Assembly: GCA_044229475.1 (NCBI GenBank)
Contig: JBGASW010000002.1
Location: 743,517-807,516 of the forward strand
DNA: 64,000 bases
DNA from: Thermoanaerobaculia bacterium
GTDB taxonomy: Bacteria; Acidobacteriota; Thermoanaerobaculia; UBA5066
Direction: 5' to 3'
Shown: piece by piece, positions 508 to 59,664 of the stretch
Layout of the letters: each line of letters opens with the position of its first letter
Position numbering within the stretch: position 1 is the first letter of the stretch
Position numbers and translations under genes: made by a program
The notes under the pieces: generated by a model
What the model was told of the DNA's origin: nothing
The model's database searches: none
The model's input: only the letters and a program-made list of their open reading frames with translations

Positions 508-638
508 CACTTCCTTTGAATGCGTCCCACGTCTGCGACGTCTCTTCGGGGACGGCCGCCGATCCCTCAGGATACGCAGAAACAGGAAGGAAGACAGGGG
601 AGAACCAGATGACAGGCTCGTTCAACGCCTTCGAAATG
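508..638. repeat. Convergent pair of AT-rich family motifs (cacTTCCTTTGAATG 508-522 and CCTTCGAAATG 628-638) bracketing the gdh RBS and start codon
   Basis: Forward and reverse-complement copies 120 bp apart. AT-rich islands in GC-rich context. Confidence 0.6.
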
Positions 639-1892
639 GCCCAGACCCAGTTCGACAAGAGCGCCGACATTCTCGCGCTCGACGCACCGACCCGCGACCT
701 CCTCCGGTGGCCGCTCCGCGAATACTGGTTCGCGATCCCGGTCCGCATGGACGACGGGAAGGTCAAGGTGTTCCGCGGCTTCCGCGTTCAGCACAACGAC
801 GCCCGCGGCCCCAGCAAGGGCGGCATCCGCTTCCACCCGCAGGAGACGATCGACACGGTGCGCGCTCTCTCCATGTGGATGACGTGGAAGTGCGCGGTCG
901 TCGACATCCCGCTCGGCGGCGCCAAGGGCGGCGTCATCTGCGACCCCCACAACCTCTCCGCGCGCGAGCAGGAAGGCATCTGCCGCGGCTGGGTCCGCCA
1001 GGTCGCGAAGAACGTCGGCCCCGCGATCGACGTGCCGGCTCCGGACGTCATGACGACTCCGCAGCACATGCTCTGGATGCTCGACGAGTGGGAGACGATC
1101 CACGGCCACCGCGGCCCCGGCTTCATCACGGGCAAGCCGGTCGGCATGGGCGGCTCGCTCGGCCGCACCGAGGCGACGGGCTACGGGGCGGTCTTCACGC
1201 TGCGCGAGGCGCTCAGGAAGATGGGGATCGACGTCGCGAAGACGAAGGCGTCCGTTCAGGGGTTCGGCAACGTCTCGCAGTACGCGATCCAGCTCTACAC
1301 GAAGATGGGCGGCACGGTCGTCGCGGTCTCGTCGTGGGACCAGGCCGACCAGACGTCCTACACGTTCCGCAAGGAGTCGGGCGTGGACGGTGCCCAGCTC
1401 ATGGGGATCACGGACCACTTCGGCGGGATCGACAAGGCCAAGGCGAAGGCGCTGGGCTACGAGGTCAAGCCGGGCGGCGACTGGATCGCCGAGGACGTCG
1501 ACATCCTGATCCCGGCAGCCATCGAGAACCAGGTCACCGGCGAGACCGCGAAGAAGATCGCGAAGCGCGTGAAGGTCGTCGTCGAGGGCGCGAACGGCCC
1601 GACGACGCCCGAGGCGGACGCGATCCTCAAGGAACGCGGCATCTTCGTGATCCCGGACTTCCTCGCGAACGCCGGCGGCGTCACGTGCAGCTACTTCGAG
1701 CAGGTCCAGAGCAACATGAACCACTACTGGACGCAGGAAGAGGTCCTCAAGAAGCTCGACGACAAGATGACGCGCGCGTTTCACGACGTCGCGGACCTTG
1801 CGGCGTCGCGCAAGCTCTACATGCGGGACGCCGCGTACGTGATCGCGGTCAGCAGGGTCGCGAAGGCCTGCCGCGACCGCGGCTGGGTCTAG
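609..1892 (+). CDS. gdhA: Glutamate dehydrogenase (Glu/Leu/Phe/Val dehydrogenase family)
   Basis: ORF 516..1892. Probable start ATG 609 after a GGAAGGAAG/AGGGGAG RBS. Motif GGIRFHPQET...KCAVVDIPLGGAKGG and a C-terminal NAD(P)-binding region. Confidence 0.9.
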   Translation: MTGSFNAFEMAQTQFDKSADILALDAPTRDLLRWPLREYWFAIPVRMDDGKVKVFRGFRVQHNDARGPSKGGIRFHPQETIDTVRALSMWMTWKCAVVDIPLGGAKGGVICDPHNLSAREQEGICRGWVRQVAKNVGPAIDVPAPDVMTTPQHMLWMLDEWETIHGHRGPGFITGKPVGMGGSLGRTEATGYGAVFTLREALRKMGIDVAKTKASVQGFGNVSQYAIQLYTKMGGTVVAVSSWDQADQTSYTFRKESGVDGAQLMGITDHFGGIDKAKAKALGYEVKPGGDWIAEDVDILIPAAIENQVTGETAKKIAKRVKVVVEGANGPTTPEADAILKERGIFVIPDFLANAGGVTCSYFEQVQSNMNHYWTQEEVLKKLDDKMTRAFHDVADLAASRKLYMRDAAYVIAVSRVAKACRDRGWV

Positions 1893-1934
1893 GGTCCTTC
1901 CGTCCAGCGTCGTCCCGGTAAACTGGGGCCTGAC

Positions 1935-5278: not shown

Positions 5279-5287
5279 AGAGGCGGG

Positions 5288-5800: not shown

Positions 5801-5809
5801 CGCGGCGCC

Positions 5810-6778
5810 ATGCGCCGCAAGCCGCGCGCCCTTCTCTTTCTCGTCGCCGCACTGCTCATCGCGTCGTCTCCGGCACGGCCGGAGGAGATTTCTGCTTCGG
5901 AAATCCGCGTGTCGGCCGGGACGACCCGCTCCGGCGACCTCGTGGCTCTCGGAAGGAGGATTCTCTTAGAAGGTGAATTGGAAGGAAGCGTGGTGCTCGT
6001 CGGAGGCGGTGAGGCCGTGGTGACGGGTCGCATTCGTCGTGACCTCGTTCTCCTCGGTGCGAACGCCACGATTCGCCGCGGAGCCCGCATCGACGGCGAC
6101 GTCCTCTCCCTCGGCGGCTCTCTCACCTTCGAAGAAAATCCCCCGGTCTCTTCGGACGTCTCGCCTTTTCGCGGGCCGTCCCATCCGCAGGTCGGCGGGC
6201 GCGTTCGCACGGTCTCCGCCCTCGAGGCCGCCGTCGCCACGGAGCTGCAGACGTCCCCCGCCGCATCGCTCGCGCAGTGGCCGTTCCTCCTCTCGTTCCG
6301 CCTCGCGCTCCTCTTCGCGTGGCTCGTCGTCTCGCTCCTCCTCCTCGTTCTCGCGCCGCGGGCGATCGGCGAGTCCGCAGCGGGAGTCGCCGGGCGGAGT
6401 GCGTTCCTCGGCGCGCTCGGTGCAACCGCCGTCCTGACCGCCGCGCTCGCCGGCGCGCTCGCGCTGTCGCTCCTGCCGTCGCGCGTTTCGCTCGCGGCCG
6501 GCGCGGTCGTCCTCCTGGCGCTCGTCGCGGCGAAGGTCTGGGGGCTCACGGCGCTCTTCCTCGCCCTGGGCCGCCGCCTGAACGCGAGCGCCCGGCGCGG
6601 CAGCGCGCTCTTCGGCGATCCGGCCGCGGCTGCACTCGGCCTCCTCGCTCTCGGCGCCGCATCGCTCGTTCCGGTCGTGGGTCCCCTCGTCTGGGGCGCG
6701 GCGTCGCTCGTCGGGATCGGCGTTTCCCTCGCCGACGCCGCCTCCCGGGCCCCGCGGGTCGCGCTCGCGCCCTCCTGA
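5810..6778 (+). CDS. Bactofilin-like (polymer-forming beta-helix repeat) domain fused to a multi-pass membrane region
   Basis: Signal/TM N-terminus. Repeats [64 protein letters not shown] resemble bactofilin/CcmA repeats. C-terminal half is hydrophobic. Confidence 0.5.
5958..6140. repeat. Convergent motif pair inside the bactofilin-like gene (GGATTCTCTTAGAAGGTG 5958-5975; CCTTCGAAGAAAATC 6126-6140). Nearby 5885-5905 holds palindrome GATTTC-N7-GAAATC
   Basis: Read in-frame as [10 protein letters not shown] and LTFEENPP. Confidence 0.6.
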
Positions 6779-6824: not shown

Positions 6825-7706
6825 ATGAGTCTCGAAAAGATCGGCGTCGTCGGCGCCGGCCAGATGGGAGCGGGAATCGCGCACGTCGCGGCGCTCGCCG
6901 GCAAGAGCGTGGTCCTCCTCGACGTCTCCGACGACGCCGTGCAGAAGGGCCTGAAGGCGATCGGGAAGAACCTCGGCCGGCAGGTCGAGAAGGGCAAGGT
7001 CACGGCGGACACCCGCGACGCCGCGCTCGCGCGCATCTCTCCCACGACGGACCTGGGGCGTTTCGCCGACGCGGACCTCGTCGTCGAGGCCGTCGTCGAG
7101 AACGAGGACGTCAAGAAGGACCTCTTCGGGAAGCTCGACGTCCTCGTGAAGGCCGGCGGCATCCTCGCCTCCAACACCTCGTCGATCTCGATCACGCGTC
7201 TCGCGGCCTCGACGAAGCGGCCGGAGCGCTTCATCGGAATGCACTTCATGAACCCGGTGCCCGTCATGACGCTCGTCGAGGTCATCCGGGGGATCGCGAC
7301 GTCCGACGAGACGACGGCCTCCGTGGTCGCCCTCGCCGAGGCGATGGGGAAGACACCTCTCCTCTGCCGCGACTTCCCGGGCTTCGTCTCGAACCGCGTC
7401 CTGATGCCGATGCTCAACGAGGCGTTCTTCGTCCTCCACGAGGGCATCGCGACGCCCGAGGCCGTGGACGGGATCATGAAGCTCGGCATGAACCACCCGA
7501 TGGGCCCGCTCACGCTCGCCGACTTCATCGGCCTCGACACGTGCCTCGCGATCCTCCGCGTCCTGCACGGCGGCCTCGGCGACGACAAGTACCGCCCGTG
7601 CCCGCTCCTCGTGCAGATGGTCGACGCGGGCTGGCTCGGGAAGAAGGCCGGCCGAGGCTTCTATCGTTACGACGCCCCCGGTGGGAATCGGATTGAGATT
7701 TCTTAG
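6825..7706 (+). CDS. 3-hydroxybutyryl-CoA / 3-hydroxyacyl-CoA dehydrogenase
   Basis: N-terminal [13 protein letters not shown] Rossmann fold. Conserved NTSSISIT and [14 protein letters not shown] motifs. RBS AGGAG upstream. The TAG stop lies inside an AT-rich motif copy. Confidence 0.9.
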
Positions 7707-7751
7707 AAGGGAAGAGGGGCGAGCGGCGGGAGCTCCTCGGGTGGTCGTCCC

Positions 7752-9628: not shown

Positions 9629-9652
9629 CGTTCTTGGCATGCGTTTCCGTTG

Positions 9653-9680
9653 TTGACACGGAGTTTTCTTTGAATATAGA
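9653..9680 (+). promoter_or_regulatory. Sigma70-like promoter TTGACA-N16-TATAGA for the downstream TonB-dependent receptor
   Basis: TTGACA 9653-9658 and TATAGA 9675-9680 in an AT-rich intergenic island. An AT-rich motif copy (gagttttctttgaatat) occupies the spacer. Confidence 0.55.
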
Positions 9681-9735
9681 GTTCATAAAACAAACCGATT
9701 GTCCGGTTTTGCGGCGGGTGCCGCAGGAGGAAACG

Positions 9736-12519
9736 ATGCCCAGAGGCCGCCGCCCCTTCCTGCTTTCGAAGAATCTTCTTCCTCTCCTTGTTCCGGTCCT
9801 CCTCCTCGCGGCGCCGCGCGTCTCGGCGCAGACGGCCGCCGCGACACTCGAGGTCGTCGCGACGGACGCCGCGGGCGCGCCGGTGCCGGGCGCCAGCGTC
9901 GAGGCGAAGAGCTCCGGCACGGGGCTCACCCGAACCGGCGTCACGGGCGTGACGGGCATCGCGAAGTTCGCCGCGCTGCCCACGGGCACGTACGACGTGA
10001 CCGTGAAGCTGCAGGGATTCGAGACCGTCGCGCAGAAGGGCGTCGTCCTTCGCGTCGGGCAGACGGGACGCGTGAACGTCACGCTCGCCCAGCGGAAGGC
10101 CGCCGAGGTGAGCGTCGTCGCCTCGGCGCCGCTCGTCGACGTTTACAAGATCGACTCCTCGACGAACGTCTCGCCGGAGCAGATCCGGGATCTCCCGACG
10201 CCCGACCGCGACTTCCAGAACCTCGCGTTCATCGCGCCGACCGTCGAGCGCGAGCGCGGCGCCTTCCGGTTCGTGACGGGCGGCCCCGTCATCGGCGGAG
10301 GCGGGAACGCGAGTCAGTCGACGATCCTCGTGGACGGCGTCGACTTCACGGACCCCGCCCTCGGGCTCGCGAAGACGAAGTTCTCGCAGGACGCGATCTC
10401 CGAGTTCCGCGTCATCAGCAACCGTTTCGACGCCGAGGTCGGCGGATCCGCGGGCGGCGCGCTCTCGGTTCTGACGAAGAGCGGCACGAACACGCTCTCG
10501 GGAACCGCCTTCGGCTTCTACCGCGGCCCGAACCTGCGCGCCAGGGGCGCCTTCGAGCAGGACTCCACCGTCGACTACGAGCGCAACCAGTTCGGCGCGA
10601 CCGTCGGCGGCCCGATCGTGAAGGACCGGACGTTCTTCTTCGGCTCGATCGAGCAGGTCAACGCGACGACGCCCACGCTCTTCCGCCCGAAGGGAGCGTT
10701 CACGTCCCAGGCGGCCGACTACAAGGTCCCCATCCACCAGACGCTCGGGTACCTCGGCCTCGACCAGACGCTTTCCGAGAACAACCACCTCATCGCGAAG
10801 CTCGACTACGAGCGCTTCCGCCAGGACAACTTCCGCGTCGGCGGCGTCGCCGCCATTGATTACGGCCAGGAGCTGAACCGCGACAACCTGACGTTCGCCG
10901 TCGGCGACACGTGGAACCTCGGCAACGGCTCCGTGAACGAGGCGCGCGCCCAGTACGGCTCGCGCAAGTACGAGGAACCCACGAACACCGCGAGGATGGC
11001 CGAGTGGTACTCGAGCGGCAACACGCTCCAGACCGGCGGCAACATTCTCGGCAACCTCCTCGGCGACGGCACGCAGTTCGAGTTCCGCGACACGCTTTAC
11101 CTCCATTTCACGGGCGCGGGCTCGCACGACGTGAAGGTCGGCGCGGGCGTCCAGCGCGTGATCGACCGCTCGCGGATCACGACCTACGAGTACGGCCTCA
11201 TGCTCTACCTCACGGACTCGAAGGCCCTCCCGCTCGCGTACGCTTACGGCATCGGCTCGGCCGACGTGAAGGCGAACACGACGCGTCTCGCCGCCTACGT
11301 GCAGGACGACTGGCGCCCCGTCTCGAACCTCACGGTGAGCCTCGGCGTGCGCTACGACTACGACTCGGGCGGCAACAACCCGAACATCTACCAGCCGAAC
11401 CTCGGCCTCGACGGCCGCCCGATCGACACGAACAACTTCCAGCCCCGCCTCGGCATCTCGTGGGACATCACGGGGAAGGGCCAGTACGTCGCCCGCGGCG
11501 GCGTCGGGATGTTCACGGGACGCTACCTCCTCGTCCCGGCGTTCACCGAGATGCAGCAGAACGGCTACACGGGCCGCGTGACCTACACGAACATCAACGG
11601 CGCGCTCCTCGGGTTCCCGGCCTTCGCCCTCGACCCGAACAACCCGCAGAACACGGGCATCAAGTCCAAGCCCGCCGTCACGGTCATCGACAAGACGCTC
11701 GATGCGCCCGAGTCCACGCAGGCGACGCTCGGCTTCACGGCGAAGCTCGGGCAGACGGGCCTCTACGCGGACGTCGAGGGCATCTACATGAAGGGACGCA
11801 AGGAGATCACGGTCACCGACCGCAACTGGAGCGGCAACGCGTCGCACACCCGGCCGAACACGGCGTTCGACCAGATCAACACGTACACGAACGACGGCCG
11901 CTCCGAGTACATGGCCGCCGTGTTCTCCCTGAACGGCAACATCAAGGGCGGGCACGTCGTGACGGCGTCGCTCACGCTCGCGTCCAAGCACAACATCTCC
12001 GACGACTTCAGCCCCGAGTTCCCGACGGGCTACCCGAACGACCCGGCCAATCTGGAGGCCGAGTACGGCCGCGCCCGCTCCTGGGAGCGGTACCGCGTCG
12101 TCATCTCGGGCATCGCGCGGCTGCCGTGGGGCATCAACGTCGCCCCGGTCTTCGAGTACGGCGCCGGCCAGCCGTGGACGCAGCGTCTCGGCTACGACTA
12201 CAACGGTGACGGAAAGAACTCGGACCGCCCGGCGGGCGTCTCGCGCTTCGCCGAGGACGGCCCGGCCTACCGCAACGTGAACATCCGCATCTCGAAGATG
12301 TTCAACGTCAGCGGCATCGGCGTCGAGCTGATCGCCGAGTGCTTCAACCTCTTCAACACGGTCAACTACGACGTGACCTCGATCGACGGCGCCCGGTACC
12401 TGTCGGGACCGACGATCGCGAACCCCAATGCCCCCGCGAACCCGAATCCGAACTACGGCGCGGCCTCCGCGACGCTGTCGCCGCGCGAGGGCCAGATCGG
12501 CCTGAGGGTGTCGTTCTGA
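9736..12519 (+). CDS. TonB-dependent receptor-like outer membrane protein with N-terminal carboxypeptidase-regulatory-like domain
   Basis: RBS AGGAGG then ATG 9736. Signal peptide. N-terminal domain VVATDAAGAPVPGASVEAKSSGTGLTRTGVTGVTGIAKFAALPTGTYDVTVKLQGFE. Long beta-barrel-type sequence ending ...GLRVSF (terminal Phe). Confidence 0.8.
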   Translation: MPRGRRPFLLSKNLLPLLVPVLLLAAPRVSAQTAAATLEVVATDAAGAPVPGASVEAKSSGTGLTRTGVTGVTGIAKFAALPTGTYDVTVKLQGFETVAQKGVVLRVGQTGRVNVTLAQRKAAEVSVVASAPLVDVYKIDSSTNVSPEQIRDLPTPDRDFQNLAFIAPTVERERGAFRFVTGGPVIGGGGNASQSTILVDGVDFTDPALGLAKTKFSQDAISEFRVISNRFDAEVGGSAGGALSVLTKSGTNTLSGTAFGFYRGPNLRARGAFEQDSTVDYERNQFGATVGGPIVKDRTFFFGSIEQVNATTPTLFRPKGAFTSQAADYKVPIHQTLGYLGLDQTLSENNHLIAKLDYERFRQDNFRVGGVAAIDYGQELNRDNLTFAVGDTWNLGNGSVNEARAQYGSRKYEEPTNTARMAEWYSSGNTLQTGGNILGNLLGDGTQFEFRDTLYLHFTGAGSHDVKVGAGVQRVIDRSRITTYEYGLMLYLTDSKALPLAYAYGIGSADVKANTTRLAAYVQDDWRPVSNLTVSLGVRYDYDSGGNNPNIYQPNLGLDGRPIDTNNFQPRLGISWDITGKGQYVARGGVGMFTGRYLLVPAFTEMQQNGYTGRVTYTNINGALLGFPAFALDPNNPQNTGIKSKPAVTVIDKTLDAPESTQATLGFTAKLGQTGLYADVEGIYMKGRKEITVTDRNWSGNASHTRPNTAFDQINTYTNDGRSEYMAAVFSLNGNIKGGHVVTASLTLASKHNISDDFSPEFPTGYPNDPANLEAEYGRARSWERYRVVISGIARLPWGINVAPVFEYGAGQPWTQRLGYDYNGDGKNSDRPAGVSRFAEDGPAYRNVNIRISKMFNVSGIGVELIAECFNLFNTVNYDVTSIDGARYLSGPTIANPNAPANPNPNYGAASATLSPREGQIGLRVSF

Positions 12520-14291: not shown

Positions 14292-15263
14292 GTGCCGCGC
14301 GCCGCGAAGGTCCTCCTTGCCCTCGTCGCCGTCCTCCTCGTCCTCGGGGCGGCCGCGGGAGTGGTCTTCTGGAAGAGGCCCCTCGCGACGCTCGCGTGGA
14401 TCGGCCGCCGGCGCCTCCGGGCGTCCGGCTTCGAGAAGCACGTCCGGCCTTCCGCGGCCGGGCCGCAGGTCGTGTTCTCCGGCGGCGGCGGAGCGCCCGT
14501 CGTTCTCGTCCACGGCGCCGGAGACCAGGCCGGCGGCTGGTCGAAGGTGGCTCCGCGCCTCGCGAGGAGCTTCTCGGTCGTGGCCGTGGACCTCGCCGGG
14601 CACGGCGAAAGCGCGCCGGAGAGGGGTCCGCTGCCGTTCGCGACGCTCCTCGCCGGATTCGACGGCGCCATGGGGACGCTCCCGCAGGGGAAAGTCACTC
14701 TCGTCGGGAACTCCCTCGGTGCGTGGATTGCGACGGTCTGGGCGACGCGGCATCCCGACCGGGTGAGTCACCTGGTGCTCGTGAACGGCGGGCCGCTCCT
14801 CGGCGACCGCCCGGACCTCACGCTCCAGCCGAAGACGCGCGCGGAGGCGGACCGGACTCTCGCGGCTCTGCGCGACCCGTCGGCCCCGCTGGTCCCGGAC
14901 TTCGTGGTCGACGACGTCATCCGCGAGGCCGCCACGGGGCCGATCGCGCGGATCGCCGCGGAGGCGAAGGGCATGTCCGCGTACCTGCTCGACGGCAAGC
15001 TCTCGGGGCTCGACGTCCCGGTGGACCTCCTCTGGGGGGCGTCGGACAAGCTGCTGTCGGTCGACTACGCGAAGCGCCTCGCCGGCCAGCTCCCGGCCGC
15101 GCGTCTGACGACGATCGAGCGCTGCGGTCACGTGCCCGCCGTCGAGTGCCCCGACCGCTTCACGGAGGCGCTCCTGAAGATCCTCAAGGACCCTCTGCCC
15201 GAACCGACCGTCTCCTCGCCGCCGGTCGCCGCGCCCGCCGCCGCGGCGGCGCCGAAGCCGTGA
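14292..15263 (+). CDS. Alpha/beta-hydrolase fold protein (membrane-anchored)
   Basis: GTG start. N-terminal TM helix. VLVHGAGDQAGGW and nucleophile elbow GNSLGAW. C-terminal His region. Confidence 0.8.
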   Translation: MPRAAKVLLALVAVLLVLGAAAGVVFWKRPLATLAWIGRRRLRASGFEKHVRPSAAGPQVVFSGGGGAPVVLVHGAGDQAGGWSKVAPRLARSFSVVAVDLAGHGESAPERGPLPFATLLAGFDGAMGTLPQGKVTLVGNSLGAWIATVWATRHPDRVSHLVLVNGGPLLGDRPDLTLQPKTRAEADRTLAALRDPSAPLVPDFVVDDVIREAATGPIARIAAEAKGMSAYLLDGKLSGLDVPVDLLWGASDKLLSVDYAKRLAGQLPAARLTTIERCGHVPAVECPDRFTEALLKILKDPLPEPTVSSPPVAAPAAAAAPKP

Positions 15264-16891
15264 TCTCCGGCGACGTCCTCGGGGAGCGCGCGCGGCTGTC
15301 GCCGGAGAAGACCGCGCTCGTCGAGGTCGCGACGGGACGGCGCTTCACCTATGCGGAGCTGGATGCGCGCGCGAGAGGCGCGGCACGGACGCTGACCGAG
15401 GGGCTCGGCCTGAAAAAGGGCGACCGCATGGCCCTCCTCGCGGGCAATTGCGTGGAGTTCCTCGACGTCTTCTTCGCGTGCGGGAAGAACGGCGTCGTCC
15501 TCGTCCCGCTCAACACGCGCCAGACGGCGGGAGAGCTGATTGGCGTCCTCGAGGACGCAGAGCCGAAAGCGCTGATCTATGGAGCCGCGTTCGAAGAGAC
15601 CGTTGAAGATTTGCTTAGAAAGGTAAGAGGGGTAACCCCGGTTCTTCTCGACGCGCCGGCGCAGCGTGGCGCGAGGGCGGCGGGCGCGCCGAACGCCCGC
15701 ACCACCTTCAAGGAAATCTTCTCTTCTCCTCCAGCGGCGGCTCCTGCCGCCGCTGCAGAAGTCCCCTCTCCCGGCCCGGAAGATCTCTACTGCCTCCTCT
15801 ACACCTCCGGCACCACGGGCAAGCCGAAGGGCGTGATGGTGCCGCACCGGATGGTCGCGTGGAACGCGGTGAACACCGTCGTGTCGTGGCAGCTGCGCGA
15901 GGACGACGTGTCGCCGATCTACACGCCGCTGTACCACGCGGGCGGCCTCGGCGCGTTCCTGACGCCGGTCTTCGCGATCGGCGGGACGATCGTCCTCCAC
16001 GCCGGCTTCGACGCCGCGGAGGTCCTCGCGACGATCGGGAAGGAGCGCTGCACGGTGGTCCTCGGCGTGCCGACGATCTTCCGGATGCTCCAGGAGCACC
16101 CGTCGTGGGCGTCGGCCGACTTCTCCTCGGTCCGCTACTTCATCAGCGGTGGTGCGCCGCTGCCGCTCGACATCATCGAGACGTGGCACCGGCGCGGCGC
16201 GAACTTCAAGCAGGGCTACGGCCTCACCGAAGTCGGCGTGAACTGCTTCGCGATGAGCGTCGAGGAGTCCGTGCGGAAGGCCGGCTCGATCGGCAGGCCG
16301 ATGATGTTCACGGAGGCGAAGCTGACCGGCGAGGACGGGCGGGAGGTCCCGGTGGGCGAGGTCGGCGAGCTCCTCCTCAGGGGCCCGCACGTCTGCCGGG
16401 GCTACTTCCGGAATCCCGAGGCGACGGCGGCGTCGCTCGATGCCGAGGGCTGGTTCCACACGGGCGACCTCGCGAAGAAGGACGAGGACGGGTTCTTCAC
16501 GATCGCGGGCCGCAAGAAGGACATGCTGATCTCGGGCGGCGTGAACGTGTACCCGGCCGAGATCGAGGGTGTCCTCTTCCAGCATCCGCGGGTGAAGGAC
16601 GTCGCGGTCGTCGGCGTGCCCGACGAGAAGTGGGGCGAGGTCGGCGTGGCCTTCGTCGTTCGGAGGGAAGAAGGGAGAGAGGAGAAGGGAGAAGAGAAGA
16701 TTTCTTTGAAGGTAATAGGAGAGATGGCCGAACTGGCGGCCTTTGTCGAGGCGCGCCTCGCGAAGTACAAGGTTCCCCGGGAGTTCATCTTCGTCGCGAG
16801 CCTGCCCCGGACCCCCTATGGGAAAGTCGTGAAGGGTGACCTCCGCTCTCTTTACCTTTCAAAGAAATCTTCAACGAATGAAGCCCGATGA
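15260..16891 (+). CDS. Acyl-CoA synthetase / fatty-acyl-AMP ligase (AMP-binding family)
   Basis: GTG overlaps upstream stop (GTGA). AMP-binding motif YTSGTTGKPKGV, plus YGLTE and the C-terminal KYKVPREFIFVASLPRTPYGKV. Confidence 0.9.
   Translation: MISGDVLGERARLSPEKTALVEVATGRRFTYAELDARARGAARTLTEGLGLKKGDRMALLAGNCVEFLDVFFACGKNGVVLVPLNTRQTAGELIGVLEDAEPKALIYGAAFEETVEDLLRKVRGVTPVLLDAPAQRGARAAGAPNARTTFKEIFSSPPAAAPAAAAEVPSPGPEDLYCLLYTSGTTGKPKGVMVPHRMVAWNAVNTVVSWQLREDDVSPIYTPLYHAGGLGAFLTPVFAIGGTIVLHAGFDAAEVLATIGKERCTVVLGVPTIFRMLQEHPSWASADFSSVRYFISGGAPLPLDIIETWHRRGANFKQGYGLTEVGVNCFAMSVEESVRKAGSIGRPMMFTEAKLTGEDGREVPVGEVGELLLRGPHVCRGYFRNPEATAASLDAEGWFHTGDLAKKDEDGFFTIAGRKKDMLISGGVNVYPAEIEGVLFQHPRVKDVAVVGVPDEKWGEVGVAFVVRREEGREEKGEEKISLKVIGEMAELAAFVEARLAKYKVPREFIFVASLPRTPYGKVVKGDLRSLYLSKKSSTNEAR
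15605..15721. repeat. Convergent motif pair in acyl-CoA synthetase N-terminus (GAAGATTTGCTTAGAAAGG 15605-15623; CCTTCAAGGAAATCTTC 15705-15721)
   Basis: 17/19-nt near-reverse-complementary. Encodes DLLRKV and TFKEIFSS. Confidence 0.65.
16696..16882. repeat. Convergent motif pair at acyl-CoA synthetase C-terminus (GAAGATTTCTTTGAAGGTA 16696-16714; CCTTTCAAAGAAATCTTC 16865-16882), near-perfect 18-nt inverted repeat
   Basis: Arms differ by one inserted base. Encodes EKISLKVIGE and an unusual C-terminal tail LYLSKKSSTNEAR. Confidence 0.7.
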
Positions 16892-28848: not shown

Positions 28849-28941
28849 ACATCCTCACGACCGGCTGCGGGCTCCTCGCCGCGTACTCGGCGATCCCGGC
28901 CCTCGACGCATTCCTCCGCTGGCGGCGCCTGATGGCGCCGC

Positions 28942-28953
28942 GGGGGGGGGGGG
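28942..28953. repeat. Homopolymeric G12 tract in the intergenic region upstream of the EPS glycosyltransferase operon
   Basis: Twelve consecutive G about 155 bp upstream of GT2 start 29108. Confidence 0.6.
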
Positions 28954-29053
28954 CGCGCGGCCGGAGGGCCGCGCGCCCGGGAAGCTCCTCATCGTCGTTC
29001 CCTCGCGGGCCGAGGGCGCGAGAGTCGGCGATCTTCCGGGCGATGTTCGAAGA

Positions 29054-34553: not shown

Positions 34554-35207
34554 GTGAAAGCGAGTCACCGTCTCCCGATCCCGGGCCTCGACGCGCTGCG
34601 CCGATCGCTCAGGCGCCGCCTGCTCGGCCGCGGCAAGCCGAGGTCGGCCGAGGTGTGGAACGACCAGTACCGGGCCGGCACGTGGGACGGGCTCGTCGCC
34701 GAGACCGAGCGGCACGCTTGCGTCGCGGAGCTCATTCGTCGGTACGCTCCGCCCGCGCCTCTGGTCCTGGACGTCGGGTGCGGGCACGGCGCGCTTGCCC
34801 GCCAGCTGAGAACCGGCGCGGGAGGACGCTACGTGGGGATCGACATTTCGGAGGAGGCGGTCCGGCGCGCGGAAGAGGGCGCCGTTCCGGAGGAGTCGTT
34901 CCGTGCGTTCGACGTCGAAGGGGGGCCGCCCGACTTCCTCGCGCCCGGATCGGTCGACGCGGCGGTCTTCGCCGAAGTCCTCTACTACCTCGACGACCCG
35001 CTTGCGACGCTCCGCCGCTTTCTGCCGCTCCTGTCGCCGCGCGGCATCTTCGTCTTCTCCCTCTGGAAGCCGGCCCGCCACCGGGTCCTTCGCCGGCGCC
35101 TCGCCAGGGAGTACGACGAAGCCTGCGCCCGGGAAGTCGGGCGCGGCGAGACGTGGCGGATCAGCTTCTGCGTTCCGCGGGGACGCTCTCTTCCGGTTCC
35201 CGCCTGA
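34554..35207 (+). CDS. Class I SAM-dependent methyltransferase
   Basis: GTG start. Motif I LVLDVGCGHGALA. Acidic motif II, then FVFSLW. Overlaps mutY 3' end convergently. Confidence 0.7.
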   Translation: MKASHRLPIPGLDALRRSLRRRLLGRGKPRSAEVWNDQYRAGTWDGLVAETERHACVAELIRRYAPPAPLVLDVGCGHGALARQLRTGAGGRYVGIDISEEAVRRAEEGAVPEESFRAFDVEGGPPDFLAPGSVDAAVFAEVLYYLDDPLATLRRFLPLLSPRGIFVFSLWKPARHRVLRRRLAREYDEACAREVGRGETWRISFCVPRGRSLPVPA

Positions 35208-43656: not shown

Positions 43657-44241
43657 GTGGCGGCGAGCGGTTCCTTCTACGGGCTCCTGACGCGGCGGGT
43701 GGGCGAGGCCCGCCTTGCGGCCGCGCTCCCGCACCTGCCGAGGGGCGGCGGCGGCAGAGTCCTGGACGTGGGCTGCGGCCTGACGGATCTCGCGGCGCGG
43801 ATCCCCGACTACACCGGCGCAGACCGCAATCCCGACGTGCTCGCCGAACAGAGAGGGAGATTTCCGAAGAGAGATTTCTATGAATGGGACATCGTTCGGG
43901 GCGCGGCTCCGGCGGCGCTCTCGGCGAAAGCACCATTCGGGGGAATTCTTCTTCTGGCCGTCCTCGAACACGTTCAGGAACCCGCTTCGGTGCTCGGACG
44001 TCTCGCGCCGCTTCTCGCGCCCGGAGGCCGGTTGATCGCGACGACGCCTCATCCGAGCGGCCGCTGGCCGCTGGAGGCGGGCGCGGCGCTCGGCCTGCTC
44101 TCCTCCCACGCCCATGACGAGCACGAGACGCTCCTCGGCCGCGAGTCCCTGGAATCGGCGGGCCGCGCTTCGGGGCTGTCTCTCGTTCTCTACCGGAGGT
44201 TCCTCCTCGGCATGAACCAGCTCGCGGTCTACACACGGTGA
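43657..44241 (+). CDS. Class I SAM-dependent methyltransferase
   Basis: GTG start. Motif I VLDVGCGLTDLA. Post-I acidic region. LLLAVLEHV. Confidence 0.7.
   Translation: MAASGSFYGLLTRRVGEARLAAALPHLPRGGGGRVLDVGCGLTDLAARIPDYTGADRNPDVLAEQRGRFPKRDFYEWDIVRGAAPAALSAKAPFGGILLLAVLEHVQEPASVLGRLAPLLAPGGRLIATTPHPSGRWPLEAGAALGLLSSHAHDEHETLLGRESLESAGRASGLSLVLYRRFLLGMNQLAVYTR
43855..43951. repeat. Tandem forward copies (GGGAGATTTCCGAAGAG 43855-43871; GAGATTTCTATGAATGG 43871-43887) plus reverse copy CCATTCGGGGGAATTCTTC 43933-43951 in methyltransferase gene
   Basis: Encodes RGRFPKRDFYEWD and KAPFGGILL. Confidence 0.55.
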
Positions 44242-47200
44242 CGGCCGGCCCCCGCCTCGTCCGCCGCGGCGCGGACGCGATCCATGTCGTGAACGCCCGC
44301 ACGCACAACCTCAGGGACGTCACGTGCACGATCCCCGTGGGGGCGCTCACCGTCGTGACGGGCCCTTCGGGTTCCGGCAAGTCTTCGCTCGCGTTCGACA
44401 CGCTCTACGCCGAGGGCCAGCGTCGCTTCGTCGAGTCCATGTCCACGTACGCGCGCCAGTACCTCGAGCGGCTCGAACGTCCGGACGTGGACGAGATCAC
44501 GCACGTCCTCCCGGCGATCGCGATCGAGCAGAGGGCGCCCGCGCGCTCGGCGCGCTCGACGATCGGGTCGGCCACCGAGATCCACGACGTCCTGCGCCTC
44601 CTCTTCTCGGCCGCGGGCACGCTGCGCTGCCCGGACGACGGCAGCCCCGTGCGCCGCGAGACGGCCGAGAGCGTCCGGGCGGCTCTTCTCGAAGAGTTCG
44701 GCGAGGGCGCGCGCCTCCTCGTCGTCGCGCCTCGCAGAGTGACGTCGTTCGCGGCGGAGAGCGCGGAGTGGAGGAGGCTTGGCTTCTACCGGTACGTCGG
44801 AGCTGCGGGCGACGTTCTGGAAATAGAAGAGAAGATTTCTTCGAGTGAAAGAGAGAGGGAGAGCAGCTCGCCGCCCCGCAGGGCCGTAGCGCGTTCGAGC
44901 GCGGCGCGTCGTCCCTCTTCACCCTTCAAAGAGATCCCCTCTTCCTCCCTCTTCCCTCTGCTCATCGGCCGCCACGTACTGCGGGCTGACGATCCGGAAA
45001 TCCTCTCTTCACTTTCAACGGCCTTCGACGCCGCAGACGGATCGCTTCTCGTCTTGAAGTCCGGAGAGGGTCTTTCCTCCGCCCGCACGTTCCGCCGCGG
45101 CCTGTCGTGCAACGCGTGCGGCCGGGCGTTCGCGGACCCGGTGCCCGCGCTCTTCTCGTTCAACTCGCCGCGCGGGGCCTGCGAGACGTGCCAGGGGTTC
45201 GGGCGGATCGTCGGCATCGACGCGGCGCGCGTCATTCCCGACCCGCGCAAGACGCTGCGCGAGCGTCCGATCGCACCGTTCAACTCGCCCTCGTACGAGA
45301 GCGCGTACGACGACCTCAAGGCGGCGTCGCGCCGCCTCAAGCTGCGGTGGGACGTTCCCTGGAACGAGCTGACGCAGCGGGAGAGGGACGCCGTCTGGAC
45401 GCGCTCCGGAGATTGGTACGGCGTCGAGGGCCTCTTCGAGTACCTCGAGAAGAAGCGCTACAAGGTTCAGGTTCGCGTCATGCTCGCGCGCTACCGCGGC
45501 TACTCGACGTGCCCCGAGTGCCGCGGCGCGCGGCTGAGGCCCGAGGCGCTCGCCGTGACGGTCGGCGGAAAGACGATCGCCGAGGTCTGCGACCTGACGC
45601 TCGACGGATTCGTGGCGTTTCTCGGGGCGCTCCCGCTGCGCGAAGCCGAGCGCGAGCGGGCAGCTTCCCTCGTCGAGGAGCTGGCGCGGCGCGCGGGGAC
45701 GCTCGTCGAGATCGGCCTCGGCTACCTGACGCTCGCGCGCACGATGCGCACGCTGTCGGGCGGTGAGGCTCAGCGCGTCCAGCTCGGCTCCGCGATCGGC
45801 AACGCGCTGACCGGAACGCTCTACGTCCTCGACGAGCCGACGGTGGGCCTGCATCCGCGGGACACGCGGCGGCTCCTCGCGGTCCTCGAGAGGCTCGCGG
45901 CCGCGGGCAACGCGGTCGTGGCCGTCGAGCACGACACGGACGTCATCCGTGCGGCCGACCACGTCATCGACCTCGGCCCGGGGGCCGGCGCGCTCGGCGG
46001 GCGGCTCGTCTTCGAAGGAACGCCGGAGGAGCTGACCGAGGCGGACACCGCGACGGGAAGGTCGTTGAAGAAGGAGAAAGAGATACTTCTTGCTTCGGAC
46101 GCGGCGGGATACGGGCCGACTGTGGCGACGGACGCCGTGGCTGCGGAGACGGTGGGAGCCTTCGGCACTTTCTTTGAAGGTGGAGTGAGTGCAGGCGCGC
46201 CCGAGAGGCCGGAGGGCCGCATTCGCCCCGCCGCCCATTCACCTTCTAAGGAAAACCATCGTGACGATTCGATTCGCGTGCCACTCGAATCGATACAGGT
46301 CGTGGGTGCGCGAGCAAATAATCTCCAGAACCTCTCGGTCTCGTTTCCCTTGCGGCGGCTGGTGGCGGTGTCCGGGGTGTCGGGGTCGGGGAAATCCTCC
46401 CTCGTCGTCGACGTTCTCGCCGCGGGCGCGCGGCAGCGCATGGGCAAGGGCCTCCTGCCGGGCATCGACGCGGTGGGGGAGCACGATGGCATCTTCGGGC
46501 TCGAGCACGTTTCGGACGTCATCCTCGTCGACCAGTCGCCGCCCGGGCGCTCCTCGCGCTCGAACCCGGCGACCGTGACGAAGGCTTGGGACGAGATCCG
46601 GACGCTCCTCGCCCGGACGCCCGCCGCGAAGGCGCGCGGCCTCGAGAAGGGCGCCTTCAGCTTCAACGCGGCGGGCGGGCGGTGCGAGAGGTGCGAGGGC
46701 GCCGGCGTCGTGACCGTGGACATGCAGTTCCTCGCGGACGTGACGATCGTCTGCGACGTCTGCGACGGGCGCCGCTTCAAACCGGAGGTCCTCGAGGTGC
46801 GCCTGAGGGGCCGGAACGTCGACGAACTCCTCGCGACGACCGTCGACGAGGCGCGCCTCCTCTTCGCGGACGCGCCCGCCATCGCGAGCCGCCTCCAGCC
46901 GCTCGCCGACGCGGGGCTCGGGTACCTCACGCTCGGCCAGTCGACGGCGACGCTCTCGGGCGGAGAGGCGCAGCGGCTGAAGATCGCGACGTTCCTCCGG
47001 GGGGCCGAGGCCCCGAAGGCGCCGGTCCTGTTCGTTTTCGACGAGCCGACGACCGGCCTGGCGCCGTCCGACGTCGACGTCCTCCTCGCCGTGTTCCGCC
47101 GGCTCCTCGCGGCCGGCCATTCGATCGTCGCGGTCGAGCACAACACGGCCTTTCTCGCGCGCGCCGACCACCTGATCGAGCTGGGCCCGGACGGCGGCCC

Positions 47201-47309
47201 GGACGGCGGCCGAGTCGTCTTCGAGGGCGAGCCGGCGGCGCTCGCGGCTCGCGGCGGGACGCCGACCGCCCGAGCGCTGAAAGGACGGGTACAATTTCCG
47301 CCACGGTGA
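44238..47309 (+). CDS. uvrA: Excinuclease ABC subunit A (UvrA family) with expanded low-complexity loop and inter-domain linker
   Basis: Two ABC ATPase modules ([33 protein letters not shown]; [11 protein letters not shown]), zinc modules (CNACG...CETCQG; CERCEG...CDVCDG) and signature LSGGEAQR x2. Linker about 90 aa versus about 25 aa in E. coli UvrA. Confidence 0.85.
44820..44960. repeat. TIR-like element in uvrA: left arm GAAATAGAAGAGAAGATTTCTTCGAGTGAAAGAGAGAGGGAGAG, right arm CCTCTTCACCCTTCAAAGAGATCCCCTCTTCCTCCCTCTTCC, flanking a GC-rich core
   Basis: Arms are imperfect inverted repeats of roughly 35 nt. The segment encodes Ser/Arg/Pro-rich low-complexity peptide [40 protein letters not shown]. 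Confidence 0.6.
46074..46256. repeat. Three motif copies in the expanded uvrA inter-domain linker (GAGAAAGAGATACTTCTTGCTTCGG 46074-46098; CACTTTCTTTGAAGGTGG 46166-46183; CCTTCTAAGGAAAAC 46243-46256)
   Basis: Encode [19 protein letters not shown] and SPSKENHRD. The linker is about 65 aa longer than in E. coli UvrA. Confidence 0.6.
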
Positions 47310-49319: not shown

Positions 49320-49341
49320 TCAGAAGGGATTCTAGAGAACG

Positions 49342-52398: not shown

Positions 52399-52405
52399 CG
52401 GGTCC

Positions 52406-56429: not shown

Positions 56430-56467
56430 GGTTCGAGGCTAATTCTACGCGCGGGGCCGTCGCCTTG

Positions 56468-57397: not shown

Positions 57398-58692
57398 CAG
57401 GCGCGCCCGAGCCCGACGTAGTTCCAGCCCGCCTTCTTCATCTCCTTCGGCTCGTAGAGGTTCCGGAGGTCGACGAAGTTCTTCGCCTTCATCGTCTTCT
57501 CGATCCGGGGGAGGTCGAGCTTGCGAAACTGGTTCCAGTCCGTGGCGAGGACGAGGACGTCGGCGCCCGCGATGCAGGCGTACTGGTCCTCGGCGAGCTT
57601 CAGTCCCGGCATCTCCCTGCGGGCGTTCTCCATCGCCGCGGGGTCGTAGGCGACGACGTCGGCGCCGCGGGCAAGGAGGTCGGACGCGAGCTTCAGGCTC
57701 GCGCTCTCGCGGATGTCGTCCGTCTCGGGCTTGAACGCGATGCCGAGGAGCGCGACGCGTTTGCCGTCGACGCTCCCGCACAGCCCCTCGACCTTGTCGA
57801 TCATGCGGGCCTTCACGCGGTCGTTCGCGGAGAGCGTCGCCTCCATGAGCTCGAACGTGTAGCCCACCTTGCGGGCGAGGTCCACGACGGCGGAGGAGTC
57901 CTTCGGGAAGCACGAGCCGCCGTAGCCGGGGCCCGGGTTCAGGAACTGCGGCGCGATGCGCTTGTCGAGGCCCATTCCGCGCGCGACGTCCTTGACGTCG
58001 GCGCCCATCTTCTCGCACATCATCGCGATTTCGTTGATGAACGTGATCTTCAGCGCGAGGAAGCCGTTCGAGGCGTACTTGATGAGCTCGGCCGACTCGA
58101 CGTCCGTCACGACGAACGGCACGCCCGCGATCGCGAGCGGCGAGTAGACGTCCTTCACGATCGCGATCGCTTCTTCGTCGCGCGAGCCGATCACGACGCG
58201 GTCCGGGTGCATGAAGTCCTCGATCGCCGAGCCCTCGCGCAGGAACTCGGGGTTCGAGACGACCGAGAACTTGTATTTCCCGTTCTTCTTGAGGATCTCT
58301 TCGATCTGCGCGCCGGTTCCCGTGGGGACCGTGGACTTCGTGACGACGACCTTGTAGCCGTTCATGTGCTCGGCGATCGTCTCGGCGACCTGGAAGATGA
58401 ACGAAAGGTCCGGAGAGCCGTCGTCCTTGGGCGGCGTCCCGACGGCGATGAAGATCACGAGAGAGCGTTCGATCGCCTCGGCGACGTTCGTCGAGAACCG
58501 GAGGCGGCCCGCCTTCTCGTTCTTGTGGATGAGCTCCTCGAGGCCCGGCTCGTAGATGGGGGAGACGCCCTTGTTCAGGAGCGCGATCTTGCTCTCGTCC
58601 TTGTCGATGCAGCTCACGTCCATGCCGAAATCGGACAGGCAGGCGCCCGTGACGAGGCCCACGTAGCCCGTGCCGACCATGCAGATGTTCAT
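57397..58692 (-). CDS. ugd: UDP-glucose 6-dehydrogenase
   Basis: [19 protein letters not shown], catalytic GGSCFPKD, C-terminal UDP-binding domain. GGAGG RBS. Confidence 0.95.
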
Positions 58693-58764
58693 CGGAAAGA
58701 AGCCTCCAGCGGGGGAATCCCGGGGAGGGAGATTGTACCCGCCGGAGGCCTTCGAGACCTGGTT

Positions 58765-59664
58765 TCAGGGTCTGAGAAGAACCTTCAGGACTCCCGGGCG
58801 CCCAGCCTCGCGGAGCGCGCGAACCGCCTGGCCGAGCGGGAATTCCGACGAAAGGAGGAAGAGGACGTCCGCTCTTTTCATTCGAAGGAATTCGAGCGCC
58901 GGTTCGAAGCGCCCGCAGCGTGAACCCACGACGGTGACCTCGTTCACGACGAGCGGCGCGGCGTCGAAACGGGCGGGCGCGTGATGCGTCGACTTCCAGA
59001 CGATCGTTCCGCGCGGTTTCACGAGAGCCAGGGCGCGCGGCATCCCCGCGGGCGAGCCCGTGGCCTCGACGACGAGGTCGAACGACGCGGCCTTCGCTCG
59101 CGTCGTGCGACCGAGAAGAGCGACGTCGGCGCCCGCAGTCCCCAGCACGGCCGCAGCGAGGCGCCCGAGCTTGCCGGGCCCGAGGACAGCCGCGCGCGTT
59201 CCGGACGGCACCGCGACCTGGTCGAGGATCTCGCAGGCGGCCGCGAGCGGCTCGACGAAGACGGCCTCTTCGTCGGCGACGCCCGGCGGAACCTCGAAGA
59301 GATTCGCCTCGGGAAGGGTCAGCCACTCGGCGTGCGCGCCCGCGTGGCCGCGGATGCCGAGGACCGTGCGCGTCGGGCAGTGGCGCCCAAGTCCCTGCGC
59401 GCACCATGAGCACAGTCCGCACGCGAGGTTGATCTCGCCGACGACGCGCTTGCCGAGCCACGGCGACGCCGCCGGCCCTTCGACGATGCCGACGAACTCG
59501 TGGCCGGGGATTCCCGAGAAGCCGTGGTATCCGCGCTTCAGCTCGAGATCGGTGTTGCAGATCCCGGAAAGAAGGATCCGGACGAGCGCGAAGCCCTTCC
59601 GCGGCGAGGGCCGCCGCACGTCGCGGACAGCGGCCCTGCCATTGTCGAAGACGAGAGCGCGCAT
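58765..59664 (-). CDS. Zinc-dependent alcohol dehydrogenase-like oxidoreductase (MDR family)
   Basis: Start ATG rc 59662-59664 (MRALVFDNG...). Zinc ligands GHEFVG and CGLCSWC. NAD fold [11 protein letters not shown]. Carries two AT-rich motif copies on its coding strand. Confidence 0.8.

Follow-up and report, generated by a model that had tools for sequence, protein, structure and literature searches.

An oriented, AT-rich DNA motif in convergent pairs marks the GC-rich chromosomes of one Thermoanaerobaculia sub-clade

Why would a chromosome of about 70% GC carry the same short AT-rich island over and over, often inside genes that are otherwise unrelated? The question is raised by a stretch of 64,000 nucleotides from a Thermoanaerobaculia bacterium (contig JBGASW010000002.1, positions 743,517 to 807,516), here called the window, whose GC content is 67-76% throughout. 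A preliminary description had noticed the islands, given the background correctly as roughly 70% GC, and offered three explanations: decayed palindromic elements inserted in frame, a DNA motif selected where it stands, and long-range RNA stems. That interpretation is supported in part, the second explanation fitting best. What we can state plainly concerns the anatomy of the motif, the rule that orients its copies, its restriction to one clade, its origin by substitution, its retention against the pressure on GC content at third codon positions (GC3), and the lack of covariation between partner copies.

We judged exact and mismatched occurrences against dinucleotide-preserving shuffles. The word TTTCTTNGAAGG has six exact matches in the window where 0.01 are expected, a chance level as far below one as had been supposed; at up to two mismatches it has 32, against 5.8 expected and 10 in the largest shuffle. 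An unbiased 10-mer scan of the window puts TTTCTTTGAA first, over-represented about 415-fold. A 42-nucleotide position weight matrix (PWM), trained on 20 copies, finds 22 copies at or above the threshold of 16 bits, and none across 20 shuffles. The observation is confirmed. The exact words first reported also hold: TTTCTTTGAAGG at 16701, 29058, 35361 and 46169, with near-exact reverse copies at 16856 and 44923; TTCCTTCGAATGAA at 30310 on the plus strand and 58879 on the minus strand; and TTTCTTCGAGTG at 29865 and 44836. An artefact of assembly is ruled out: copies recur at orthologous positions across many independent metagenome-assembled genomes (MAGs), including contigs of 3.7-3.9 Mb. In what follows, one oriented copy of the motif is called an arm, two arms form a pair, and the DNA between them is the interior.

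Aligned in one orientation, the copies reveal a unit longer than the 12-mer first described: a GA-rich run leads into (A/T)TTTCTT-N-GAA(G)G, and beyond this come (T/G)GAA and further purines. An arm can be written as an oriented purine-rich stretch, RRRR(A/T)-TTTCTT-N-GAA(G)G-(T/G)GAARRGG. In a logo of 234 arms from many genomes, information runs from -5 to +20, an informative stretch of about 25 nucleotides on a purine-rich strand with a TTTCTT block. Its flanks are nearly free of C and T, position N is A in 44%, C in 29%, T in 19% and G in 8% of arms, the sole internal dyad is TTC-N3-GAA, and there is no GTAG or CGTC tag. Arms stand in either orientation relative to the host gene and are read in several frames, as had been claimed (EISLKV, EEILRKV, TFFEGG, TFKEIF, LSKKSS and PFEENP); since all six frames are in use, an explanation at the peptide level is ruled out and the conserved unit is, as proposed, nucleic acid. 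At all loci the inner forward arm (AGAAGGTGA) resembles a Shine-Dalgarno (SD) sequence and the reverse arm (TCACCTTCT) the 3' end of 16S rRNA (anti-SD), a likeness that may be incidental, since it is located at less conserved arm positions.

The arms follow a strict layout. In the window we recognize nine clear pairs, one pair with a degenerate partner and one compact pair, all of them convergent (-> <-); three arms are solo, at 7699, 30310 and, if its degenerate partner is discounted, 43875. Over the window and its close relatives, with 93 arms in all, neighbouring arms no more than 400 bp apart are convergent in 33 cases, divergent in none and tandem in two; pair spacing ranges over 36-191 bp, and about three quarters of the arms belong to convergent pairs. 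A further 61 loci of the clade (459 kb, 288 arms) yield 99 convergent, 16 divergent and 55 tandem neighbours. The divergent ones are mostly more than 200 bp apart, that is, the backs of adjacent elements, and extra arms (-> <- <-) are common. A convergent pair reads alike on either strand, the purine-rich arm coming first and the pyrimidine-rich arm second. The clade DNA covered by the analysis totals about 0.9 Mb in fragmentary loci (about +/-10 kb each). Most of the independent pairs came from a scan fixed at 90-120 nucleotides between cores, so its spacing statistics are biased; likewise, a Rayleigh test for helical periodicity of the spacing gave a weak signal that is confounded by the selected spacing window.

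Arms occupy tolerant sites, namely protein linkers, loops, termini and intergenic DNA, and are also found at stop codons and in short spacers near start codons. Wholly within good open reading frames (ORFs) are 47 of 107 pairs, with 51 outside, according to gene calls that beyond the window are crude and GC3-based and with ORFs covering 71% of the sequence. Intrinsic terminators are ruled out by the lack of a U-tract and by pairs inside essential ORFs. A Chi-like site for a translocating nuclease is ruled out by reasoning, since neither close convergent pairs nor a 25-nucleotide site is predicted by it.

Among the 11 pairs listed in the preliminary description, eight are solid (5962/6126, 15611/15705, 16701/16856, 22630/22688, 29058/29198, 35361/35473, 44836/44923 and 46169/46242) and one, 43875/~43933, has a degenerate reverse arm. 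The pairs 508/628 and 29860/29978 score below 8 bits and find no support, and the supposed intergenic copy at 49325 is below the PWM threshold and not a family member. Two pairs are added, 9665/9763 and the compact 58843/58879. A generic inverted-repeat finder returned, in its top 25, only the pairs 5955/6123 and 58840/58863, as GC-rich chance repeats dominate. The pairs and solo arms of the window are as follows, with PWM scores in the order of the cores.

5952-6147: pair, cores 5962-5973 and 6126-6137, PWM 34.7 and 33.1; inside a gene for a hypothetical membrane protein (5810-6778, plus strand; no Pfam match), read RILLEGE ... LTFEENP.
7689-7720, plus strand: solo forward arm, core 7699-7710, PWM 36.2; its TAG is the stop codon of a 3-hydroxyacyl-CoA dehydrogenase gene (6825-7706, peptide GGNRIEIS*), 42 nucleotides upstream of the start of a TPR gene (7752).
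9655-9784: pair, cores 9665-9676 and 9763-9774, PWM 34.0 and 29.7; brackets the start codon (9736) of a gene for a TonB-dependent-receptor-like outer membrane protein (Pfam).
15601-15726: pair, cores 15611-15622 and 15705-15716, PWM 33.5 and 33.1; in the AMP-binding domain of an acyl-CoA synthetase (15263-16891, plus strand), read EDLLRKV ... TFKEIF, the Pfam AMP-binding match having no net length excess over the profile.
16660-16880: pair, cores 16701-16712 and 16856-16867, PWM 46.9 and 37.4; same gene, the reverse arm forming its C-terminal tail (LSKKSSTNEAR*), 21 nucleotides before the next ATG (16888).
22620-22709: pair, cores 22630-22641 and 22688-22699, PWM 19.4 and 32.5; inside the prolyl-tRNA synthetase gene (ProRS, 21640-23421, plus strand), read EEILRKV ... 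PFEENP.
29040-29220: pair, cores 29058-29069 and 29198-29209, PWM 40.9 and 22.2; forward arm between the genes for malic enzyme and a GT2 glycosyltransferase, GT2 start codon (~29105) between the arms, reverse arm in the GT2 5' end (DYLSKKS), where YLSKK is kept in relatives.
30300-30331, plus strand: solo arm, core 30310-30321 (TTCCTTCGAATG), PWM 25.3; in a GT4-type glycosyltransferase ORF (Pfam Glyco_trans_1_4).
35345-35495: pair, cores 35361-35372 and 35473-35484, PWM 40.5 and 27.9; in the C-terminal part of an HhH-GPD (MutY/EndoIII-like) glycosylase gene (35161-36354, minus strand), with orthologous pairs in the relatives L084, L085 and L170.
43850-43960: pair, forward core 43875-43886 (RDFYEWD), PWM 29.9, and degenerate reverse arm at about 43931-43957 (PFGGILLL); inside an S-adenosylmethionine-dependent methyltransferase gene (43657-44241, plus strand).
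44815-44960: pair, UvrA site 1, cores 44836-44847 and 44923-44934, PWM 37.6 and 37.3; in the UvrA gene (44238-47309, plus strand).
46155-46320: pair, UvrA site 2, cores 46169-46180 and 46242-46253, PWM 26.5 and 32.1; in an inter-domain linker of UvrA, read TFFEGG ... HSPSKEN.
58840-58893: compact pair, forward-like core 58843-58854 and reverse core 58879-58890, PWM 12.5 and 16.1; 36 nucleotides from start to start, a 31-nucleotide palindrome in the inverted-repeat search, in the C-terminal tail of a Zn-dependent alcohol dehydrogenase (Zn-ADH) gene (58765-59955, minus strand).

Several features beside these arms deserve a record. By inspection, arm 9665 stands in the spacer of a sigma-70-like promoter candidate, TTGACA-N16-TATAGA (9651-9690), upstream of the TonB-dependent receptor gene; there GAATAT replaces GAAGGT and supplies the putative -10 element. 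The pair centres 9714, 16218 (two pairs), 22659, 29128 and 35417 are separated by consecutive intervals of 6.50, 6.44, 6.47 and 6.29 kb, followed by 9.6 and 13.9 kb; this near-equal spacing is a post-hoc observation in one window, without statistics. A public 8.3-kb contig, L083 (DAOMFY010000161.1, GCA_035430045.1), which encodes an identical ProRS, stops at the position of arm 29058 (window ~29070), suggesting that arms break short-read assemblies of the same organism.

How, then, did arms come to stand inside genes? In ProRS, the clade has EEILRKVTGTRPGFVGPLGLQPFEENPI where arm-less relatives have EEKLGAIAGTRPGFVGPLGLRSPDGKPV, at identical length, both arms being made by substitutions. The outgroup peptides EEKLGAI(AG) and RSPDGKP are replaced by EEILRKV and QPFEENP, again of the same length. 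The interior between them (22630-22688) is the native segment GTRPGFVGPLGL, homologous at the DNA level to arm-less relatives, and the intermediate lineages L024 and L028 possess the reverse arm only. In the methyltransferase, a relative at 76% identity (L086) has GATTTCCACGAGTGG (DFHEW) and the clade GATTTCTATGAATGG (DFYEW), with equal protein length and no indel; ahead of this sequence, GACGGG is changed to AAGAGA. Judging from these alignments, both pairs arose in situ by substitution, and the methyltransferase forward arm was improved from a pre-existing near-match. The ProRS arm site can also change length, since one relative (L016, 873-1166) carries a 12-residue insertion (KPIPHRISEDITIPEEDKPVP) exactly where the others have the reverse arm.

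UvrA gives a more complex picture. The forward arm of site 1 encodes the widely conserved LEISSS, and because LEISS(S/K) is present in every relative down to 65% identity (60 aligned), arm-like sequence is native there; the interior and reverse arm give a stretch of low complexity, 0-60 residues long, which has S/PF(K/E)E(I) at its end in some relatives only. Site 2 occurs in several forms (full, forward-arm-only, fused and empty), distributed patchily over relatives of 85-88% identity, and the deletions have ragged end points; at the DNA level L086 is empty, L085 and L084 have the forward arm only, and the window and L002 are full. The inserted block starts exactly at the forward core and runs about 50 nucleotides past the reverse core, and no target duplication is visible at the junctions of empty and filled forms. 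Besides UvrA, extra length is involved at one other site, the acyl-CoA synthetase forward arm 16701: together with its GA-rich tract, in which orthologues vary, it makes an insertion of about 13 amino acids (EEGREEKGEEKISLKVIGE), and the AMP-binding_C match spans 89 amino acids against a 76-position profile. The UvrA data fit arms that are embedded in a linker of hypervariable length, growing and shrinking over time, and agree less well with the transposition of a unit with fixed bounds.

Other repeats occur near the UvrA sites. A third, degenerate arm-like sequence (GAGAAAGAGATATTTCTTGCTTCGGA, 46055-46090) lies about 85 nucleotides upstream of site 2; it is kept in relatives (L002 11886, L084 11765, L085 11834), and in those further away it expands into (ERER)n tracts. 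Just after the reverse arm, inside the site-2 insert (46275-46310), comes a distinct inverted repeat that is richer in AT, CGATTCGATTCG-N-CGAATCGA. Slippage of purine tracts and of short repeats can be seen beside arms. In other genomes, (GGATTTC)x4 runs into an arm core (L159, 5480-5522) and (GGATTC)x3 occurs at 2530-2566 of L163; tandem repeats that abut arms in this way suggest replication slippage seeded by the arm sequence.

The interiors speak to the same question. An all-versus-all blastn comparison of 104 interiors found no similarity save in 14 cases; in 13 of 13 testable ones the flanks align too, and these similarities are therefore those of orthologues in different genomes. In none of the 13 is the interior flipped relative to its flanks. 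As in ProRS, the interior between 16701 and 16856 is native: it is the conserved AMP-binding C-terminal domain (KYKVPREFIFV..GKV).

Could the arms nevertheless be the ends of a MITE- or REPIN-like mobile element? They would then be terminal inverted repeats (TIRs) moved by a transposase encoded elsewhere, for example a Y1 enzyme of the RAYT or TIRYT type, and the copies within genes would be in-frame insertions that the host tolerates, as with the palindromic elements of Rickettsia. Arms that are constant in sequence and inverted toward each other suit such an element, as do an interior and reverse arm that come and go between closely related UvrA genes, the insertion in acyl-CoA synthetase, the extra tandem arms and the public contig broken at arm 29058; moreover, TIR-associated Y1 transposases are described in Acidobacteria, and REPs occasionally lie inside genes, DNA-repair genes among them (PMC3733652). 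We consider it unlikely, however, as interiors are alike only at orthologous loci and may consist of conserved coding sequence that is native to the gene, four arms, making up two pairs, arose without a change in length, and the UvrA site-2 insert overruns its reverse arm without target-site duplication. Hairpin-recognizing Y1 transposases would in addition favour covariation between partners, which is lacking (see below). Pfam finds no transposase, integrase or recombinase in the window. Long-range arm pairs (250-3000 bp) number four candidates in about 0.8 Mb of clade DNA, with no transposase between them; the one that we examined, L114, encloses an ordinary membrane/TPR protein. The unique or native interiors, the constant length of ProRS and methyltransferase and the asymmetric UvrA insert leave the decayed, in-frame RPE/MITE-like insertion of the preliminary description mostly unsupported.

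The same data bear on invertons, in which a single global invertase would flip many short segments that have the arms as their inverted repeats, intragenic recoding inversions included. Inverted repeats of one consensus do flank short segments at many loci, some of them intragenic, and antisense frames are often open in this GC-rich genome. Yet invertons are highly improbable: no orthologous interior is flipped (0/13), the ProRS and acyl-CoA synthetase interiors are essential native segments that inversion would destroy, intragenic interiors keep their native reading frame in all relatives, and no recombinase gene is nearby. Spacings down to 36-58 bp are also very short for recombinase synapsis.

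Once present, the arms are held against the GC3 pressure of the genome. GC3 of ProRS is 0.93 overall and 0.40 in its 15 arm codons. Where an arm codon ends in A or T, the A or T is retained in 84% of nine relatives, versus 33% at the 42 codons of this type in the rest of the gene (Mann-Whitney p=5e-5). Orthologous arms persist among relatives with 76-88% UvrA identity.

In which organisms does the family occur? A graded series built on ProRS-anchored metagenome loci gives 0.32 arms/kb in relatives with at least 83% ProRS identity (169 kb), 0.023 arms/kb at 68-80% identity (173 kb) and 0.002 arms/kb in other Acidobacteria at 51-57% identity (441 kb), the motif being about 15-fold rarer in the sister lineages than in the arm-bearing clade. 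We also scanned one genome per species of bacteria and archaea (596 Gb) for the paired pattern. Every high-GC match comes from Thermoanaerobaculia or Acidobacteriota MAGs, and the others are one conserved locus of the Streptococcus mitis group and scattered low-GC chance matches. The family is a lineage-specific trait of one Thermoanaerobaculia sub-clade. About 0.3 arms/kb would imply on the order of a thousand arms per genome of about 3.7 Mb. In a sister lineage without arms, a search for some other over-represented word gave only orthologous coding conservation.

The streptococcal locus (L088, L091, L097, L098 and about 20 more entries of the group, from many oral streptococci) always measures 127 nucleotides overall in a 40% GC genome, and is presumably an unrelated conserved gene or repeat. 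Viral contigs, scanned at two spacing ranges, gave low-GC matches only, none from the Thermoanaerobaculia clade, and no high-GC viral contig with pairs. About 50 IMG/VR contigs (L205-L258, 30-50% GC) match the paired pattern, mostly with an identical 138-nucleotide span and some with 144 nucleotides, which points to a single family of conserved viral sequences that has no relation to the Thermoanaerobaculia motif.

A sharp lineage boundary of this kind recalls the dialects of DNA uptake signals. Were the arms an uptake-signal-like or other molecular-drive motif, biased uptake with recombination, or biased gene conversion, would turn near-matches into the consensus, with no host function needed. 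Substitution at tolerant protein positions, the improvement of near-matches, a density of about 0.3/kb, the use of all reading frames and the retention of orthologous positions would follow, and uptake sequences do originate by mutation and recombination rather than insertion and form dyad pairs in intergenic DNA (PMC2817400). They act singly, however, with most coding copies unpaired, and their dyads are adjacent terminator hairpins, not sites 40-200 bp apart; single-site bias does not predict that some three quarters of arms are in convergent pairs and none in divergent ones. No high-GC viral contig carries pairs, though the clade's phages are probably poorly sampled. An uptake or drive motif is, in our estimate, an improbable answer. 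A DNA motif shaped in place remains the best fit among the earlier suggestions, in view of its in-situ origin, nucleotide-level retention and sharp clade limit, and it is the uptake-signal version that leaves obligatory convergent pairing unexplained.

Is it then the complementarity of the two arms that matters? In 96 of 106 elements the minimum-energy fold joins the two arms, with fold z-scores averaging -2.7 against 0.0 for control segments, an excess that arises because two copies of one consensus stand in inverted order. In the window, true partners form duplexes of -35.6 kcal/mol, against -38.1 kcal/mol for arms of different loci (permutation p=0.83). Across 95 pairs, partners agree at variable positions as often as shuffled partners would, with no covariation at positions 6, 10, 12 and 13 (observed and shuffled, 0.45 and 0.45 at position 10, 0.33 and 0.38 at position 12, 0.39 and 0.38 at position 13); the best case is position N, with 0.40 against 0.32 (p=0.04, uncorrected). 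Among ProRS orthologues, N of the forward arm varies between C, A and G while the reverse arm is constant. With neither covariation nor a better duplex within pairs, each arm is tied to the consensus of the family and not to its partner, which argues against a selected stem of RNA or single-stranded DNA and against recent template-switch copying between arms. It is apparently not the pairing as such that is conserved.

This bears directly on an element acting at the RNA level, a hairpin through which RNase III, or some other protein that binds RNA, would act on mRNA stability, on the loading of Rho or on translation. Several pairs are found at gene starts or ends, the forward arm is SD-like (GAAGGTGA) and the reverse arm anti-SD-like (TCACCTTC), the arms do fold together, and the exclusive -> <- layout would give one RNA architecture whichever strand is transcribed. 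Complementarity within pairs is nevertheless the same as between pairs, there is no compensatory variation in the 95 pairs or among ProRS orthologues, the folding excess is trivial for inverted copies of one consensus, and a stable stem or cleavage site within the coding sequence of ProRS or UvrA would be costly. A search of the whole window with Rfam at gathering thresholds gave no match. We therefore rate an RNA element as rather improbable; of the long-range RNA stems suggested earlier, what stands is that the arms are able to pair.

Altogether, a force acting on the DNA sequence is needed, one that makes arms from near-matches and keeps them, in one clade only, as two inward-facing copies 40-200 bp apart. 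We tentatively favour paired, oriented recognition sites for a sequence-specific DNA-binding factor, built in situ and cooperating across the interior. The genome would build and keep arms in place where the host sequence tolerates change; each arm would be read on its own, as sequence, by the factor, and two inward-facing bound copies would act jointly across the short interior by bridging, wrapping or synapsis. Candidate readers would be a nucleoid or topology protein, or a domesticated protein of transposase or recombinase type. BIMEs bind host proteins such as gyrase and IHF, and the role of the arms might resemble the chromosomal role of REPs and BIMEs, with a mode of origin closer to that of uptake sequences.

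Some observations weigh against recognition by such a factor. A protein as reader, the cooperation of two sites and any cellular role are what we infer. A convergent pair yields the same RNA, 5' purine-rich arm first and 3' pyrimidine-rich arm last, from either strand, so the reader might act on RNA. A rigid looping complex would not lead one to expect spacings as broad as 36-191 bp. The length polymorphism around the UvrA arms, the short repeat expansions that abut some arms and the frequent extra tandem arms are features of unstable or mobile DNA. Third codon positions are as diverse in the ProRS arms as outside them (0.29 in both), so that the signal there is resistance to compositional bias, not slower change overall.

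Taken further, recognition by a DNA-binding factor could extend to a genome-wide system of cis-elements, with several hundred convergent sites per chromosome, put by substitution into coding as well as non-coding DNA, and each pair a unit of about 100 bp bound or wrapped by a clade-specific factor, though this we hold doubtful. It is equally speculative that the factor would be a dedicated one, for instance an anchor of topological domains or loops, or a domesticated transposase.

The surroundings of the arms are those of an ordinary chromosomal region. Pfam identifies glutamate dehydrogenase, a PPDK-like enzyme, hydroxyacyl-CoA dehydrogenase, a TonB-dependent receptor, a FabH-like enzyme, hydrolases, acyl-CoA synthetase, ProRS, malic enzyme, glycosyltransferases, a MutY-like glycosylase, an ABC transporter, a GGDEF-EAL protein, UvrA and Zn-ADH, and the closest UvrA matches, at no more than 88% identity, are Thermoanaerobaculia and Acidobacteriota MAGs. 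Directly downstream of the malic enzyme stop codon (28930-28932) is a run of 13 G (28943-28955). Between this run and arm 29058, some 100 nucleotides of spacer show conservation across relatives when translated in one frame, with no gene called; the region could be a slippage-prone homopolymer, a conserved leader, a small ORF or a weak point of the assembly.

REP/BIME, uptake sequences, Chi and HIP1 each led to some piece of chromosome biology, and the well-studied cases come from few cultured phyla. The case described here, from uncultured Acidobacteriota, brings together properties for which no earlier combination is known: the site is oriented and AT-rich although the genome has 70% GC, its pairs are strictly convergent and enclose unique DNA, it frequently lies in essential genes, and it originates by substitution. 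The amino-acid changes in ProRS and the methyltransferase imply a nucleotide-level force, selection or drive, strong enough to reshape proteins. On the practical side, arms seem to break short-read assemblies, they create lineage-specific low-complexity protein segments by which alignments are confused, and the motif may serve as a sequence marker of the clade. A reader, if found, would offer a handle on chromosome organization or DNA traffic in a group without genetics.

Literature searches, including those on Thermoanaerobaculia repeats, turned up no description of the motif family. We compare it here with systems known elsewhere. REP (repetitive extragenic palindromic) units, of 20-40 bp, are imperfect palindromes with a terminal GTAG or CGTC tag (PMC3733652). 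Like the REPs, BIMEs and REPINs of Proteobacteria, the arms are short, dispersed in hundreds of copies, vertically inherited and lineage-specific, and inverted doublets, which in REPs typically measure 50-150 bp across, are usual here too (33 versus 0 and 99 versus 16, convergent versus divergent). Unlike REPs, which are self-palindromic, tagged and overwhelmingly extragenic, the arms are not self-complementary and carry no tag, roughly half of their pairs lie in ORFs, and some arose by substitution. Spacers of REPINs are copies of one another, whereas interiors here are unique and may be native coding sequence. To our knowledge, no REP-associated tyrosine transposase (RAYT) has been reported for the arm-bearing clade.

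With the uptake sequences of Pasteurellaceae (USS) and Neisseriaceae (DUS) the arms share a density of 0.3-1 per kb, dialects, the use of all frames, tolerant positions and a substitution origin (PMC2817400). Uptake sequences are 9-12 nucleotides long and single, mostly unpaired in genes, and their pairs are adjacent terminator hairpins; here the pairs are convergent at 40-200 bp and have purine-rich flanks of about 40 nucleotides. We know of no link between the arms and competence. HIP1 of cyanobacteria (GCGATCGC) is an 8-nucleotide perfect palindrome, single, over-represented in genes and spacers and kept at orthologous positions. It likewise is a lineage-specific oligonucleotide in great excess that stays in place between relatives, but the present motif is asymmetric, about 25 nucleotides long, AT-rich in a GC-rich genome and convergently paired.

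The Rickettsia palindromic elements (RPEs) of Ogata et al. (2000) are reportedly palindromic repeats that housekeeping genes read through in frame, at the surface or in linkers of their proteins. In-frame read-through of housekeeping genes and placement in linkers are found here as well (compare UvrA), but an RPE is an insertion of 100-150 bp conserved over its whole length and in its peptide, while our copies have only the arms of about 25 nucleotides in common and use six frames. In contrast to MITEs, the miniature transposable elements with inverted repeats, copies have no whole-length homology, no obligatory insertion and no target-site duplication; convergent arms of one consensus are present, yet at UvrA site 2 they do not mark both insertion boundaries.

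Integron attC sites consist of inverted core sites that flank a variable central region, 57-141 bp overall, and thus also set conserved inverted sites around a variable interior. They lie between promoterless cassettes, in arrays next to intI and in one orientation, and are recognized as folded single strands whose structure, rather than sequence, is conserved; the pairs described here are scattered in housekeeping genes (ProRS, UvrA, the MutY-like glycosylase, acyl-CoA synthetase), with no array, integrase or structural covariation. The lack of covariation equally sets them apart from selected RNA hairpins. In sum, the family shares one or two properties with each known kind and departs from each in its defining ones. 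Conceivably, and we put this forward with considerable reserve, a paired cis-element system of this sort would stand apart from REP, USS, HIP and MITE, as a bacterial counterpart of architectures built on convergent sites.

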